Below are positions 10,166 to 56,879 of a stretch of DNA of 64,000 nt, one piece after another (position 1 is the stretch's first letter; every line of letters starts with the position of its first letter). The stretch spans positions 6,882 to 70,881 of the forward strand of contig CANQMS010000009.1 of assembly GCA_947624995.1 (NCBI GenBank). Direction: 5' to 3'. The position numbers and the translations under genes were made by a program. Origin of the DNA: an uncultured Clostridia bacterium. GTDB taxonomy: Bacteria > Bacillota > Clostridia > Oscillospirales > CAG-272. The notes under the pieces were generated by a model. That model made no database searches. It was not told the DNA's origin and worked only from the letters and a program-made list of their open reading frames with translations.

Positions 10166-10194
10166 TTGACAAACGGGCGCAGATGTATTATACT
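10166..10194 (+). promoter_or_regulatory. promoter for the tRNA gene (TTGACA-17-TATACT)
   Basis: -35 TTGACA at 10166-10171, a 17-nt spacer, and -10 TATACT at 10189-10194, about 18 nt before the tRNA 5' end. Confidence 0.6.
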
Positions 10195-10211: not shown

Positions 10212-10285
10212 GGGCCATTAGCTCAGTTGGTTAGAGCAACCGGCTCATAACCGGTCGGTCCGGGGTTCGAGTCCCTGATGGCCCA
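10212..10285 (+). tRNA. tRNA with anticodon CAT; sequence resembles tRNA-Ile2 (lysidine-modified) more than Met; CCA not encoded
   Basis: GGGCCAT-TA-GCTCAGTTGGTTAGAGC-A-ACCGG-CTCATAA-CCGGT-CGGTC-CGGGG-TTCGAGT-CCCTG-ATGGCCC-A folds as a canonical cloverleaf. The D arm, anticodon loop and variable region closely resemble Bacillus tRNA-Ile(CAU) as I remember it. Confidence 0.9.
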
Positions 10286-10290
10286 AAAAA

Positions 10291-10327
10291 GGGATACGGT
10301 GGGCATTGCCCACCGTATCCCTTTTTT
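10291..10327 (+). terminator. Rho-independent terminator after the tRNA
   Basis: GGGATACGGTGGG-CATTG-CCCACCGTATCCC followed by TTTTTT. Confidence 0.85.
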
Positions 10328-10337
10328 GGGTCATCTC

Positions 10338-10790
10338 GGTGAAAACGCCGCGCGAGAACGCGCTTCTGCGCGTTCTCGTTCGCGACAACAAGGCGCGTCA
10401 GCGCCTCGTGACGCGCGTTAGCGCGGCACCTATGTTGTCGCGTATGGGTTCGAGTCCCTGCGGCGAGAGCATCGCGACAACAAGGCGCGTCAGCGCCTCG
10501 TGACGCGCGTTAGCGCGGCACTCATGTTGTCGCGTACGGGTTCGAGTCCCGGCGGCGAGAGCATCGCGACAACAAGGCGCGGCAACGCGGCACTTATGTT
10601 GTCGCGTATGGGTTCGAGTCCCTGCGGCGAGAATCACGCGCGAGAACGCGCGGCAGCGCGGCACCTATGCTGTCGCATATGGGTTCGAGTCCCTGCGAGC
10701 GCATCGCGGCAACAAGGCGCGCCGGCGCCTCGTGACGCGCGGCAGCGCGGCACATATGCCGTCTCATATGGTCTAAGTCCACCCACGGAC
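10338..10790 (+). repeat. tandem array of five degenerate tRNA-3'-half-like units (period 92 nt for the first three unit starts)
   Basis: Units start at 10381, 10473, 10565, about 10637 and about 10705. Units 1 and 2 differ at 4 of 92 nt. Units 1-4 end in GGGTTCGAGTCCC, and GGGTTCGAGTCCCTG (units 1, 3, 4) is identical to the adjacent tRNA T arm. Unit 5 has only a degenerate GGTCTAAGTCCACC there. All five have a stem closing a 7-nt YAT loop. There are no unique spacers. Confidence 0.8.
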
Positions 10791-10936
10791 ACGCGAAAAA
10801 CAGACTCCGGCGCGCATTTTCTCACTTTTCGGGACAATATTCGCGGTACGCGGACTTTTATTTTTGTCTCATTTTTCGTAAAATACCGTTCGGACGGCGG
10901 AGAGCTCACGCCGATCAAAAAAACGGAGGAAAACAC

Positions 10937-12211
10937 ATGGAAAGAAAATCTATCGGAAGCTTTATCGCGGCGCTCCGCCGCGCAAACGGGATGACGCAGC
11001 AGGAGCTTGCCGACAGGCTGAACGTATCAAACAAGGCGGTGTCCCGCTGGGAGCGCGATGAAACGATGCCCGACCTCACGCTGATACCGTGCATCGCGGA
11101 GATATTCGGCGTCACGTGCGATGAAATACTGCGCGGCGAACCCGCATCCGTATATACTCCCGTTCGCCGCCCGGAGCCGGATCAGGACGGCACGGCGCCG
11201 CGGGCGCAGGAGCGCGGCGAGAGGCGAGGCGCCGCTCTGCTCGAACGGACAGCGTCACGGCTGCGGACGTCCGCCATCATCTCCCTTGCGCTCATCGCGC
11301 TGGGCGTTGTACTGATGTTCCTCGTCGGCTCGTTCTTTCAGGGCGGGATAACGGTCATCGGCGCGCTCGTTATGCTGATATTCGACATTGCCGCGGCGGT
11401 CATGGCGACGCTCTCCGCGCTGCGTGTGCGCGAGCTTCGCCGCGCCGCGGCGGAGGCGGGAGACACGGACGCCGAGCGGCTCGTGAAGAGCTCGGCGCGC
11501 CTGAGCTTTTCGGTGTTCGCGTCGCTGTTTCTCGTCCTGTGGCTCACGGTGACCGCCGGCTTTCTGCCGAAGGAAATATACTTTATGAATGTACACGAGA
11601 GGGCGGGCGGCAGCGGTATGACGGTATACGACCCGCCGGCGGTGAATGTGCCAGAGGGGACGGGCGGCAGCGTGATGACGGTATACGACCCGTCGGCGGC
11701 GAATCTCTTGCTCATAAGCCTGTGCCCCGTGCCGCTTTTATACATCTGTTACGAGCCGTATATGCGCATTTTGACCGGCGTGCGGCGCACGTATGAGGCG
11801 GGGCGTGAGGCGAGGCGTATGCGGGCCGTTGATGCCGCGCTCATATTATTGACCGCCGCGCTTGCCGTAAGCTCGGAAATTTTGTATATGTTCCCCGCAG
11901 CTTATGTCATCTCCCGCGTTTTGATGTGGTCCGCGCTCGCGCCCCTCGCCGCCTCTTTGGCAGTACCGATAATATACGCGGCGAGGACGCGCACCGCACC
12001 GTCGGTTTTCGAATGTGTGTCCGTGATCGGCATCGCTGTCGGCGCGTTTGTGACCGCACTGTCTGTAAGCGGGGTGACGTTCAACGGTGTGCCGACCGTA
12101 CGCTTCAGCGGGACGACGTTCCTCATCGGCGTGCTGACGAGCCTCGTCTTCATCGCGGCAAGGAGGCTTTTGATGCCGAAAATAAAAATCAGGGGCAGCG
12201 CCGACGTATAG
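10937..12211 (+). CDS. XRE-family HTH domain fused to a multi-pass membrane domain
   Basis: 424 aa. N-terminus SFIAALRRANGMTQQELADRLNVSNKAVSRWERDETMPDLTLIPCIAEIFGVTCDEIL is a classic Cro/C1 HTH. Six or more hydrophobic helices follow. Internal 57-nt duplication at about 11604-11700. SD GGAGGA. Confidence 0.75.
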   Translation: MERKSIGSFIAALRRANGMTQQELADRLNVSNKAVSRWERDETMPDLTLIPCIAEIFGVTCDEILRGEPASVYTPVRRPEPDQDGTAPRAQERGERRGAALLERTASRLRTSAIISLALIALGVVLMFLVGSFFQGGITVIGALVMLIFDIAAAVMATLSALRVRELRRAAAEAGDTDAERLVKSSARLSFSVFASLFLVLWLTVTAGFLPKEIYFMNVHERAGGSGMTVYDPPAVNVPEGTGGSVMTVYDPSAANLLLISLCPVPLLYICYEPYMRILTGVRRTYEAGREARRMRAVDAALILLTAALAVSSEILYMFPAAYVISRVLMWSALAPLAASLAVPIIYAARTRTAPSVFECVSVIGIAVGAFVTALSVSGVTFNGVPTVRFSGTTFLIGVLTSLVFIAARRLLMPKIKIRGSADV

Positions 12212-36072: not shown

Positions 36073-38253
36073 TCAGCCGAAGATGAAATTCACGGCGGCG
36101 CAGGCTAAAAGACCGGCGGCGGTAGGGACCGCGAACGCGGCGAGCGTCCATTTGACGCTCTTTGTCTCGCTCATGACGGTCGAAAGCGTCGTCGAGCAGG
36201 GCCAGTGCATCAGCGAAAACAGCATGACGCAGACGGCGGTGACAGTCGTCCAGCCGTTCGCGGTCAAAAGCGCGCGCAGCTCGGAGAGGGAGGACCACTC
36301 GGTCAGCGTGCCGTTCGCGGTGTACGCCATGATGATGATCGGGATCACGATCTCGTTTGCGGGGAAGCCGAGGATAAAGGCGAGGAGTATCACGCCGTCG
36401 AGCCCGAAGAAGGCGGCGAACGGGTCGAGCGCGGAGGAGAGGAGCGCGAGCAGCGTCCGCCCGCCGAGGGTGACGTTCGCGAGCAGCCATAAAAGGAGCC
36501 CGGCGGGCGCAGCGGCGATGACGGCGCGGCGCAGGACGAAGAGCGTCCTGTCGAAGACGGAGCGGACGATTATCTCGCCGACGCGCGGCTTGCGGTACGG
36601 CGGGAGCTCGAGCGTGAACGACGAGGGCTCGCCGCGCAGGACCGTTTTCGAGAGGATATACGTCACCGCGAGCGAGACCGCGGCGGAGAAGACGACGGCG
36701 GCGGTCAAAATCAGCGCGGATGCGGCGGACGAGGATGCGGAGGATGAGACGAAAAACATCGTTATGAGCGCCGTCAGCGTCGGGAACCGACCGTTGCAGG
36801 GGACGAACGCGTTTGTCAGGATGGCGAGCAGGCGCTCGCGCGGCGAGTCTATGATCCGCGCGCCGACGACGCCGGCGGCGTTGCAGCCGAAGCCCATGCA
36901 CATCGTGAGCGCCTGCTTGCCGCAGGCGCCGCATTTTTGCAGCGGGCGGTCGAGGTCGTACGCGATGCGGGGCAGATATCCGACGTCCTCGAGCAGGGTG
37001 AAGAGCGGAAAAAAGATCGCCATCGGCGGCAGCATCACGGAGACGACCCACGCAAGGACGCGGTAAACGCCGTCGACGAGCGCGCCGCGGACGTATTCGG
37101 GCGCGCCGAGGCGCGTTACGAGCGAGGAGAGCGGGTCCTCGAACGAGAAGAGCAGTCCCGAGAGCGCGTCCGAGATCACGTTCGCGCCGGACACGGTTAT
37201 CCAGAGGATCAGGGCGAGAAAGAGCAGCATCACGGGGAACGCCGTGAACCGCCCGGTCAGGATGCGGTCGAGGCGGCGGTCGCGGACGTCGTGCCCGCGC
37301 TCGGGCATTTTGACGACTCCCGAGCATATCATCTCCGAGACGCGGGAAACCGTGTTCGCGATGTCGTCCCGCGCGGTGTCGCTGCCGGCGGCGCACGTCG
37401 TGATGTCGCGTATCGCGTACCAGCGGGCGCGCCTTTCGGGCTCCGCGCGGGGCACAGCGCAAGCGCCGCAGCCGGCGCAGAAACCTGCGCAGGGAGTCCG
37501 GTCCGCGCCGGGAGCGCAGTCCGTGCCGGGAGCGCAGTCCGTGCCGGGGGCGCAATCTGCGCCGGGAGTCTGGTCCGCGCCGGGAGCGCAGCCTGCGCCG
37601 GGAGCGTGACTTGCGTCACGGGCGCCGTTTGAATTGCGCATATATTTTTCCGCGAGCGACGATATTTCCGCCTCCGTCGCCTCGCTGTACGTGAGCGGCG
37701 GCGGGAACGGGGTGACGGCGCCGGACGCGACGCTGTCGAGCGCCGATACGAGGGCGGCGAGCGTCCGCTTTTTCTTCGCCGTCACACCGACGACGGGGAC
37801 GCCGAGGCGGCGGGAGAGGAGCGGCAGATCGAGCGCGATGCCGCGGCTCTTCGCCTCGTCCATGAGGTTGACGGCGACAACGATCCGGGGCGTTATCTCC
37901 GAGATTTGCAGGACGAGCCCGAGATTGCGGGAGAGGCACGTCGCGTCGCAGACGGCGATGACGCAGTCCGCCTCGCCGGAGGCGAGCATATCGCGCGCCG
38001 CCTCCTCGTCGCGCGAAGCGGCAAGTAGCGAATATGTACCCGGGATGTCGACGAGGGTGTAATCCGTCCCGCCGGACGAAAAGAAGCCCTCCGCCGTCCC
38101 GACCGTCTTTCCGGGCCAGTTCCCGGTGTGCTGATGCATCCCGGTCAGCGCGTTGAAGACGGTGCTCTTTCCGACGTTCGGATTGCCCGCGAGCGCGACG
38201 GTGACGCGGGCGGCGCGCTTTTTTTCGCCCGAGGGCGATTTTTTTTGCAGCAT
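36073..38253 (-). CDS. feoB: ferrous iron transporter FeoB carrying a Cys-rich repeat insertion
   Basis: 726 aa. G-domain GNPNVGKSTVFNALTG...DIPGTYSL...NLMD, followed by a polytopic membrane domain. Residues ~205-272 form an extra segment (see the repeat feature). Confidence 0.9.
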   Translation of the reverse strand: MLQKKSPSGEKKRAARVTVALAGNPNVGKSTVFNALTGMHQHTGNWPGKTVGTAEGFFSSGGTDYTLVDIPGTYSLLAASRDEEAARDMLASGEADCVIAVCDATCLSRNLGLVLQISEITPRIVVAVNLMDEAKSRGIALDLPLLSRRLGVPVVGVTAKKKRTLAALVSALDSVASGAVTPFPPPLTYSEATEAEISSLAEKYMRNSNGARDASHAPGAGCAPGADQTPGADCAPGTDCAPGTDCAPGADRTPCAGFCAGCGACAVPRAEPERRARWYAIRDITTCAAGSDTARDDIANTVSRVSEMICSGVVKMPERGHDVRDRRLDRILTGRFTAFPVMLLFLALILWITVSGANVISDALSGLLFSFEDPLSSLVTRLGAPEYVRGALVDGVYRVLAWVVSVMLPPMAIFFPLFTLLEDVGYLPRIAYDLDRPLQKCGACGKQALTMCMGFGCNAAGVVGARIIDSPRERLLAILTNAFVPCNGRFPTLTALITMFFVSSSASSSAASALILTAAVVFSAAVSLAVTYILSKTVLRGEPSSFTLELPPYRKPRVGEIIVRSVFDRTLFVLRRAVIAAAPAGLLLWLLANVTLGGRTLLALLSSALDPFAAFFGLDGVILLAFILGFPANEIVIPIIIMAYTANGTLTEWSSLSELRALLTANGWTTVTAVCVMLFSLMHWPCSTTLSTVMSETKSVKWTLAAFAVPTAAGLLACAAVNFIFG
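37498..37605 (-). repeat. 18-nt tandem repeat inside feoB encoding about six APG-x-D/G-C hexapeptides
   Basis: The plus strand reads CCGGGAGCGCAGTCCGTG-like units about six times. The protein reads APGAGC APGADQ TPGADC APGTDC APGTDC APGADR, followed by TPCAGFCAGCGACA. Confidence 0.8.
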
Positions 38254-55832: not shown

Positions 55833-56879
55833 GTGGATTTTAATATGAAAAAACGGATCGCTTTGATTTCGGTCACTCTCGCCGTTCTTATGATATGTAT
55901 GTTTTCGTCCTGCGCGGACATGTACCCCGGCAGCGCCGGAGTGGAGGATCCGAACGGGAACTATAACGGCGACGTCAACGGCGAAAATGATAATTACAAT
56001 GACAATGACGACGATGACAATGACCGCACCGGCAACAGCAGCAACAGCGGCAGCAGCAGTAACAGCAGCGGCAGCAGCAACAGCGGTGGCAGCAGCAACA
56101 GCAACAGCGGTGGCAGCAGCAACAGCAACAGCAGCGGCAGCAGCAGCAACAACAGCGGCAGCAACAACAGCGGCAGCAGCGGAAATCAGTCTTCGGCGTC
56201 GTCCGTGACTTTGCCGGATCCGGGGGCGTTTTTGCACGGAAAAGTATCGCGGTCGACGGACGAAAAGATCACAAACGGGCGCAGCATCATATTCCTTTAT
56301 GAAGAGGACGGATGCGAGGGCGCCGAGGAGTACGCGGAGCTGCTGTCGGATCCGCGGTTCCATCTGCGGCTGACAGACGAAGGGGAATCGAAAGAATGGT
56401 CGGACGGGGATTTTTCCCGCTACTATGTCTTTGAGTATACGGGGTCGGGAAATGTCGGCAGCGTGGCGGTCTCGACGTCGTCCGGCAGTCTTACCGCTCC
56501 GGTCATCCTCCATTTTACCGACTTGCTCGGAAATGGCGCGATGACGGTTTCGTATTCGGACGGTTTCGAGCTCTCGGATATGGGTGACAGAAGCACGTAC
56601 GCAAGCTTTGTCGACAGGAACACCGGAGGCACATCCGGCAGCTCGGGTGACGGCGGTGATGCGGATCATCCCGGGAACTCGGGCGGCGGCTCGACCGGTC
56701 ACTGGGAATGGCAGAAGGTAAAGGTGGATTGCCCGTCCTGCGTCGGCGGCATATGCCCTCTCTGCAACGGCTCCGGAGTATACAGGATGTACGGGCAGTC
56801 GATCCCCTGCGAAAGACGCTGCAGCGTATGCGACGGGCTCGGATATTTCTATCAGGACGAATATGTTTATGTTCCGTGA
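55833..56879 (+). CDS. lipoprotein with a Ser/Asn/Gly low-complexity linker and a C-terminal DnaJ-like CxxCxGxG zinc-finger module
   Basis: 348 aa. Lipobox MFSSC. SNG repeats encoded at about 56035-56190. C-terminal CPSCVGGICPLCNGSGVYRMYGQSIPCERRCSVCDGLGYF. Confidence 0.55.
   Translation: MDFNMKKRIALISVTLAVLMICMFSSCADMYPGSAGVEDPNGNYNGDVNGENDNYNDNDDDDNDRTGNSSNSGSSSNSSGSSNSGGSSNSNSGGSSNSNSSGSSSNNSGSNNSGSSGNQSSASSVTLPDPGAFLHGKVSRSTDEKITNGRSIIFLYEEDGCEGAEEYAELLSDPRFHLRLTDEGESKEWSDGDFSRYYVFEYTGSGNVGSVAVSTSSGSLTAPVILHFTDLLGNGAMTVSYSDGFELSDMGDRSTYASFVDRNTGGTSGSSGDGGDADHPGNSGGGSTGHWEWQKVKVDCPSCVGGICPLCNGSGVYRMYGQSIPCERRCSVCDGLGYFYQDEYVYVP

Follow-up and report, generated by a model that had tools for sequence, protein, structure and literature searches.

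A hairpin-rich array behind a tRNA(CAU) gene of an uncultured Clostridia bacterium as a probable locus-specific variable-number tandem repeat

Five head-to-tail units of 92, 92, 72, 68, and 92 nt follow the terminator of a tRNA(CAU) gene in the window, the whole stretch of 64,000 nt of DNA from an uncultured Clostridia bacterium that was analyzed here. We favor reading the region as a locus-specific variable-number tandem repeat (VNTR), that is, a bacterial minisatellite, with a probability of roughly 0.6. The units stand head to tail in non-coding DNA, and their copy number at this one locus is 5, 4, 2, 1, 1, and 0 across the window and its relatives. Alignments of the units and of the loci show whole and partial unit duplications, deletions, and copy-number differences at the level of sequence. 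An earlier sequence-only reading of the window had already described five head-to-tail units after the tRNA terminator, and both Tandem Repeats Finder and a repeat search recover them. Tandem Repeats Finder reports a period of 92 with 2.3 copies and a 94% match at 10380-10588 (score, 376), together with a period of 72 with 3.2 copies at 10503-10728 (score, 282). The 92-nt period proposed earlier therefore stands, with the correction that the true unit starts found by the repeat search (10380, 10472, 10564, 10636, and 10704) lie one base before those first given.

Orthologous loci were fetched via the flanking TPR and XRE proteins, with the window and its five units as the reference. Within the same species, four units are present in a 3.5x short-read assembly (L001), a count that could reflect assembly collapse, and in a second assembly (L002) the contig breaks within the array. 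Of the relatives on long contigs, the closest is a rabbit-gut Clostridia metagenome-assembled genome (MAG) (L005; TPR protein, 96% identical), which carries two units with a period of approximately 106 to 125 nt, including a hairpin, hereafter hairpin 0, at the head of each. A single truncated unit is found in L027 (XRE, 88% identical) and a single divergent unit in L019 (TPR, 83% identical), the latter aligning to L005 with 70.8% identity over 96 nt (blastn; E = 1e-4); the downstream DNA of L019 is unrelated. L015 and L016 (TPR, 81% identical) and L028 (XRE, 65% identical over the aligned half) have no units. These three loci keep the tRNA-XRE-S1 gene order and, where the units would stand, have an unrelated insert of higher AT content; in L015, this insert follows the tRNA and measures approximately 270 to 330 nt. 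Since the array is present in the independent assemblies L001, L002, L005, and L027, it is not an assembly artifact. In more distant relatives (TPR identity, <=73%), the tRNA is absent at the site, and these loci therefore offer no comparison.

On the sequences searched, the array is restricted to a single locus and to one narrow clade among the uncultured gut Clostridia. All five units match a 19-base degenerate pattern, which was run against one genome per GTDB species, where its single true match was the orthologous L005 locus, next to six chance matches inside genes. The same pattern gave only five chance matches in JGI metagenomes, all in genes. Two pattern scans of viral contigs returned zero unit matches, blastn with the unit found no match among phage and plasmid records, and no second copy was found in the 64-kb window or in approximately 150 kb of fetched loci. 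An exact-sequence look-up of the XRE and S1 proteins of the window returned no record. A 38-nt degenerate unit pattern matches four times, versus zero times in shuffled sequence.

The features of the locus are listed in Table 1. The tRNA is called as Met from its CAT anticodon, and a lysidine-type tRNA-Ile2 may be its identity instead. Its promoter-like site is conserved in L005 and L001. The terminator hairpin behind the gene is preceded by an A-run and followed by a T-run, which gives it a bidirectional form. The G+C content is 63 to 66% in the array (10337 to ~10795), compared to 40 to 50% in the adjoining spacers. Upstream of the XRE gene, a conserved box and a terminator-like hairpin with a T-run (10840-10863) mark the right boundary of the variable zone; box and hairpin are both kept in L027, L015, and L028, and the box is kept in L005.

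Table 1. Features of the tRNA(CAU)-XRE region, in positions of the window
Feature	Position	Strand	Basis or remark
Promoter-like site of tRNA, TTGACA / 17-nt spacer / TATACT	10166..10194	+	11/12 consensus matches
tRNA, anticodon CAT	10212..10285	+	ARAGORN; Rfam RF00005, 71.1 bits
Terminator hairpin, 29-bp arms, A-run 5', T-run 3'	10277..10335		Inverted repeat, 97% complementary
Head of ancestral unit: lead CGGTGAAAACGCCGC and hairpin 0	10337..10379	+	One copy in window
Hairpin 0, 12 bp, CGAGAACGCGC-TTCT-GCGCGTTCTCG	10353-10378	+	At head of every L005 and L027 unit
Unit 1, 92 nt	10380..10471	+	Tandem Repeats Finder and repeat search
Unit 2, 92 nt	10472..10563	+	96% identical to unit 1, 4/92 positions differ
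Unit 3, 72 nt	10564..10635	+	20-nt deletion variant
Unit 4, 68 nt	10636..10703	+	Repeats and alignment
Unit 5, 92 nt, terminal type, ends GGTCTAAGTCCACCCACGGACACGCG	10704..10795	+	Counterpart of L005 unit B and L027 unit
Conserved box TTCTCACTTTTCGGGACAAT and terminator-like hairpin (TTCGCGGTACGCGGA, T-run)	10816..10863	+	Terminator scan
XRE gene: N-terminal HTH_3 and long hydrophobic C-terminal part	10937..12211	+	Pfam HTH_3, E = 6.8e-14

Unit 1 opens with a 10-bp helix, P1 (strands CGCGACAACA/TGTTGTCGCG), placed around two GC hairpins, continues with the T-arm-like 15-mer GGGTTCGAGTCCCTG, and closes with the tail CGGCGAGAGCA. In the units, a 6-bp stem (GCGGCA/TGTCGC) closes a 7-nt loop, which reads CTCATGT in unit 2, as it also does in L005. 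The identity of units 1 and 2 spans the full 92 nt, including the parts that do not resemble tRNA, and two of the four differences are accounted for by a C-G pair in unit 2 that replaces the T.T of unit 1. All of these elements had been pointed out before: the four differences, the stem with its loop, the helix around two GC hairpins, and the T.T versus C-G change are present in the sequence as described, and alignment confirms that the 15-mer is common to the tRNA T arm and units 1, 3, and 4.

The remaining units record how the array has been rearranged. The deletion in unit 3 fuses both inner hairpins at a GCGCG microhomology, and a comparable fusion is seen in L005 unit B. In unit 4, the 5' half of hairpin 0 leads directly into the 3' half of the second inner hairpin, with the T-arm-like 15-mer coming next, as seen from the 78% repeat between 10625-10660 and 10337-10372. 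Units 2 and 3 are without hairpin 0 and are partial duplications, with a junction that connects GAGAGCA to TCGCGAC. Unit 5 had been taken for a decayed copy; it is more than that, being the counterpart of the terminal unit in the relatives, with a tail, GTCCACCCACGGACACGCGAAAAACAGACT, that matches the terminal unit of L005 as well as the only unit of L027. Because the same hairpin heads the L005 and L027 units, the ancestral unit should include hairpin 0, which also aligns with a second terminator hairpin in L015. Judged by these relatives, the first unit starts at approximately 10337 with hairpin 0, and the ancestral unit is larger than first described.

From the relatives, the ancestor would have been one GC-rich spacer element of approximately 120 nt between the tRNA(CAU) terminator and the XRE promoter region, consisting of hairpin 0, the 10-bp helix around one or two GC hairpins, and a short T-arm-like hairpin. 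The T-arm-like piece was probably either an old tRNA-gene fragment or a piece made tRNA-like by exchange with the tRNA. The array would then have grown by replication slippage or unequal exchange, promoted by the hairpins, with five units in the window and 4, 2, 1, or 1 in the relatives as the outcome. Most likely, the units do not constitute separate genes. Any transcript would reach them by read-through from the tRNA and would be a hairpin-stack RNA whose role would be generic at most, for example preventing read-through from entering the XRE gene.

The rate of change across the region was assessed by comparing the window with L005 and L027. Identity amounts to 97.6 to 100% for the tRNA and its terminator, 94.8% for the spacer upstream of the tRNA, 97 to 97.5% for the spacer between the array and the XRE start, and 93 to 96% for the first 520 to 600 nt of the XRE gene. 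For the terminal unit, it equals 87.5% with 19 gap columns versus L005 and 86.3% with 24 gap columns versus L027. The units have thus diverged three to five times faster than the flanking non-coding DNA. The array is the fastest-changing part of the region, which argues against constraint at the sequence level.

A consensus scan of both strands found no promoter-like site within the array or immediately ahead of it. A very strong terminator lies upstream, and a transcript of the array would need read-through of this terminator. None of the periods of 92, 71, and 89 nt is a multiple of 3, and the reading frame is thus lost between units, which argues that the array is not coding, and an overlapping 164-aa ORF has a third-position GC of 0.58 versus approximately 0.8 for the Pfam-matched genes of the window. 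Both observations bear out the earlier view of the array as non-coding. A CRISPR array is ruled out, again in line with what had been noted before, as each unit directly adjoins the next, head to tail, and no unique spacers intervene. Among the 38 largest non-overlapping ORFs of the window, screened with Pfam (a few were omitted, e.g., at 29.6 to 31.4 kb), no integrase, phage, or TROVE/Ro60 domain was found, in keeping with the previous remark that no integrase is nearby; the scanned ORFs comprise housekeeping and carbohydrate-use genes. Likewise, the array had not been recognized as any named RNA family, and the Rfam checks agree, returning the real tRNA and chance matches: with cmscan at E up to 10, the best matches in the array reach 13 to 20 bits compared to gathering thresholds of 40 to 93 bits, and at E up to 0.1 no family match was obtained for L019, L027, or L028.

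The units had been labeled tRNA-3'-half-like. This label holds in this genome only, and there only for the T-arm-like 15-mer; it fails beyond it, for both the acceptor-like part and the anticodon-like loop. In the 64 kb, GGGTTCGAGTCCC has exactly five occurrences: the tRNA contains one, and units 1 to 4 contain one each. The best local alignment between unit and tRNA is the 15-mer itself (score of 30 versus 13.7 ± 2.5 for shuffles); the unit then continues with CGGCGAG and the tRNA with ATGGCCC, and identity is lost within the T stem. With the Rfam tRNA covariance model, no match is obtained in the array at E up to 10. ARAGORN at default settings reports the real tRNA only, with none in the units and no tmRNA; a tmRNA was rejected as a candidate, since the one call at the 70% threshold, a permuted one on the minus strand, is spurious. 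A relaxed ARAGORN run had been recommended as a check, and at 80% thresholds it draws cloverleaves in units 1 to 4, L005 unit A, and L019. However, it makes 79 calls in 64 kb (~1.2 per kb) at that setting, nearly all inside genes, and these cloverleaves were therefore discarded as evidence. The acceptor 5' strand it selects is a different segment in different loci.

The alignment of nine units gives a similar picture. A hairpin model leaves 87.5% of cells paired with seven pairs changed on both sides, versus 74% and two for the cloverleaf model, which was rejected as the worse fit. The acceptor-like helix is paired in 57% of cells and has no consistent partner strand, and the outer two T-stem pairs are unpaired in 8/9 and 6/8 units. 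The canonical 7-nt T loop (TTCGANT) is limited to window units 1 to 4 and is absent from all units of the relatives, where its counterparts are TTCAGAGT in both L005 units, TTCAGAAT in L027, and TTCAGGGT in L019; the corresponding position in unit 5 reads TCTAAGT. In the closest relatives, this loop departs from the canonical form, through an extra base or in other ways, and the anticodon-like loop varies freely. Since the extra base is common to L005, the sister, and L019, the outgroup, the canonical T loop of the window is most simply derived. A one-base deletion may have produced it, or else exchange with the tRNA located 183 bp upstream, and it would then have been copied into units 1 to 4. 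A tRNA or tRNA pseudogene was rejected, given that there is no model match, the stems are not kept paired, and the T loop lacks conservation. DNA without conserved tRNA likeness can therefore contain a perfect T-arm 15-mer, which calls for caution when mimicry is read from a single genome.

The seven double-sided changes bear on an alternative that we regard as unlikely, namely, that the ancestral unit of approximately 120 nt is a functional plus-strand structured RNA shaped as a four-way junction, one arm of which resembles a T arm, and that the array is its recent amplification. Such an RNA could act on tRNA-handling enzymes, or it could be a 3' trailer or regulatory element. Shuffled alignments give 3.5 ± 1.3 double-sided changes, and 5 of 500 reach seven; together with the level of pairing, this means that something keeps the stems complementary. 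One pair of hairpin 0 goes from C-G (window) through U.G (L005) to U-A (L027), a path that pairs only in plus-strand RNA. In L019, the first inner hairpin has changed from C-G to U-A and the second from G-C to A-U, and the C-G pair of unit 2 was likewise created by paired change. The predicted folds are stable: unit 1 reaches -46.2 kcal/mol (z = -3.1), the full first unit (10337-10471) forms a closed four-way junction at -77.5 kcal/mol (z = -4.65), and L005 units B and A have z values of -4.2 and -4.0; L005 unit B and L019 also allow closing helices, of differing sequence, to be drawn. In addition, homologous units occur at the same position in at least four lineages, and the bracketing of the array by two terminator-like hairpins would fit a read-through transcript. 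However, quasi-palindromes can regain complementarity via hairpin-templated repair, without selection on RNA, so compensatory changes in such palindromes could also arise in this way. RNAalifold finds no closing helix in its own consensus, and its covariation term of +2.64 provides no net covariation support. Entire hairpins have disappeared from L027, L005 unit B, and window units 3 and 4, the units change faster than the neighboring non-coding DNA, and the T-loop-like motif is not conserved. The element is also wholly absent from L015, L016, and L028, matches no Rfam family, and lies without a detected promoter behind a terminator with 29-bp arms. It is quite doubtful that the unit is a young, clade-specific structured RNA derived from a tRNA fragment and seen in mid-amplification, with its helices under selection and its T loop re-acquired here; were this so, the canonical T loop could engage enzymes that recognize T arms or factors that target tRNA. 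The array of tRNA-like ncRNAs or decoys suggested by the sequence-only reading is not borne out by these results, as the array has neither a tRNA-model or Rfam match nor a promoter and evolves faster than its flanks.

The position directly 3' of a tRNA gene, the 15-mer common to units and T arm, and the variability of the post-tRNA space among close relatives (the insert in L015, the unrelated DNA in L019) could also be expected if each unit were a separate scar of mobile-element integration or excision at the tRNA 3' end. Displaced tRNA fragments of this kind are used for mapping islands in Islander (PMC4383910). However, the identity with the tRNA stops in the T stem, short of the tRNA 3' end, the non-tRNA 5' parts are up to 96% identical with exact periodicity, no integrase or phage gene occurs among the 38 largest non-overlapping ORFs, and the phage, plasmid, and viral collections contain no match. 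The high identity of the non-tRNA parts points to tandem duplication rather than separate integrations, with the units copied from each other. Serial integration, one of the explanations offered earlier, is thus largely refuted and in our view very improbable at best, whereas a single old tRNA-fragment origin of the T-arm-like piece is possible. A further proposal draws on the HTH_3 gene downstream and the wealth of palindromes in the units: the array would be a row of protein-binding palindromes, e.g., operators of the XRE regulator, or a leader of the XRE gene. This we consider scarcely credible at best. L015, L016, and L028 have the orthologous XRE gene and its upstream box but no units, copy number and unit content vary freely, and the conserved terminator-like hairpin and an AT-rich putative promoter zone intervene between array and gene. 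The XRE leader proposed in the sequence-only reading accordingly finds no support, as the gene is kept in sister lineages without units and the hairpin separates the two.

If the VNTR reading is correct, the locus offers a tidy case of hairpin-rich spacer turnover by duplication and microhomology deletion beside a tRNA gene and a possible strain marker for an uncultured gut Clostridia lineage, and little beyond that. It would bear on the birth of structured RNAs from tRNA fragments only if the units are expressed and selected.

Several known systems resemble the array in part. Like the displaced tRNA 3' fragments of Islander (PMC4383910), it places a tRNA-like piece 3' of an intact tRNA in a variable zone. 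It differs in that the identity spans only 15 nt of the T arm and ends short of the acceptor strand, in that there is no island or, among the scanned ORFs, integrase, and in that the fragments are embedded in a repeated non-tRNA unit. With the YrlA Y-RNA-like tRNA mimics (PMC4201824), it shares a T-arm-like hairpin within a larger multi-helix fold. Unlike YrlA, the array has no Rfam match, conserved T loop, promoter, or, among the scanned genes, Ro60-type neighbor. A YrlA- or Y-RNA-like mimic was rejected, as cmscan gave no match (E up to 10 in the window and up to 0.1 in the relatives) and no TROVE/Ro60 domain was found.

REP/BIME elements are palindromic and dispersed in tens to hundreds of copies. 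The array is similar to them in its clustered, GC-rich, imperfect palindromes after a gene and next to a terminator, which may act as generic RNA or DNA hairpins. It differs in its longer (68 to 135 nt), composite unit and in having no second locus found, and a dispersed element of this type was rejected because only one locus occurs in the 64-kb window, the approximately 150 kb of fetched loci, and the GTDB species genomes. Mycobacterial MIRU loci are intergenic VNTRs or minisatellites with units at many loci per genome. In contrast to these, the units described here were found at one locus and are unusually rich in hairpins, with a T-arm-like 15-mer. In other respects, the array is like MIRU-type VNTRs, consisting of head-to-tail, non-coding intergenic units of tens to approximately 100 bp with variable copy number and indels.

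In the related loci that keep the tRNA-XRE-S1 gene order but carry no units (L015, L016, and L028), the position of the repeat is occupied by an AT-richer insert unrelated to it. Hairpin 0, the 12-bp hairpin heading the ancestral unit in the window, aligns with a second terminator hairpin inside this insert, where the stem-loop GAGAGAACGG-TTTT-CCGTTCTC precedes a T-run. In addition, the insert contains two copies of TTGATGCGGCTTT and promoter-like elements, comprising TTGAAT/TTGCAT, a 17-nt spacer, and TAAAAT with a TG extension. The insert could represent a small RNA gene.

The terminator of the adjacent tRNA is symmetric in all unit-bearing lineages, with an A-run, a hairpin, and a T-run, whereas it is one-directional in the unit-free lineages. 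This association may simply reflect common descent. Alternatively, the symmetric form may hint at minus-strand transcription across the array.

Coordinates of features in the window and related loci
Feature	Location	Strand
tRNA, anticodon CAT	window:10212-10285	
Symmetric tRNA terminator (examples)	window:10277-10335; L019:378-425	
One-directional tRNA terminator	L015:3695-3730	
AT-richer insert, ~270-330 nt	L015:3330-3700	minus
Equivalent insert	L016	
Equivalent insert	L028:60-340	
DNA unrelated to window, downstream of single unit	L019:1-260	minus
Site of ~130 nt absent relative to window	L005:7470-7482	
Direct repeat in XRE-membrane gene, 57 nt, 2.1 copies, 85% match	window:11586-11704	
Further in-frame tandem repeats in coding DNA	window:5862-6017, 37485-37625, 56030-56182	

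Two unit-bearing relatives depart from the window downstream of the array. Unrelated DNA follows the single unit of L019, and no XRE gene occurs in the 260 nt left before the contig ends. In the rabbit-gut genome L005, the absent stretch includes the terminator-like hairpin together with the ribosome-binding site and ATG of the XRE gene, which reflects either a true deletion or an assembly fault; a 422-aa product is nonetheless annotated on this contig.

The XRE-membrane protein shares 86 to 88% identity with its relatives, compared to 96% for the TPR protein, and diverges faster than the neighboring proteins. Its internal repeat doubles a peptide of the type GGSGMTVYDPPA. The three other coding repeats of the window include an acidic Asp/Ser/Lys-rich repeat at the N terminus of a LytR_cpsA_psr protein, an 18/36/72-nt period within the FeoB gene region, and a GCAGCA-type run carried by a 348-aa ORF without a Pfam match.

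The CAT-anticodon tRNA of the window was typed as Met by ARAGORN. Judged from its sequence, it is probably a non-initiator, because it has a G1-C72 pair and its anticodon stem lacks three consecutive G-C pairs. Its D arm and CTCATAA loop resemble those of lysidine-type tRNA-Ile2, making this a candidate identity.
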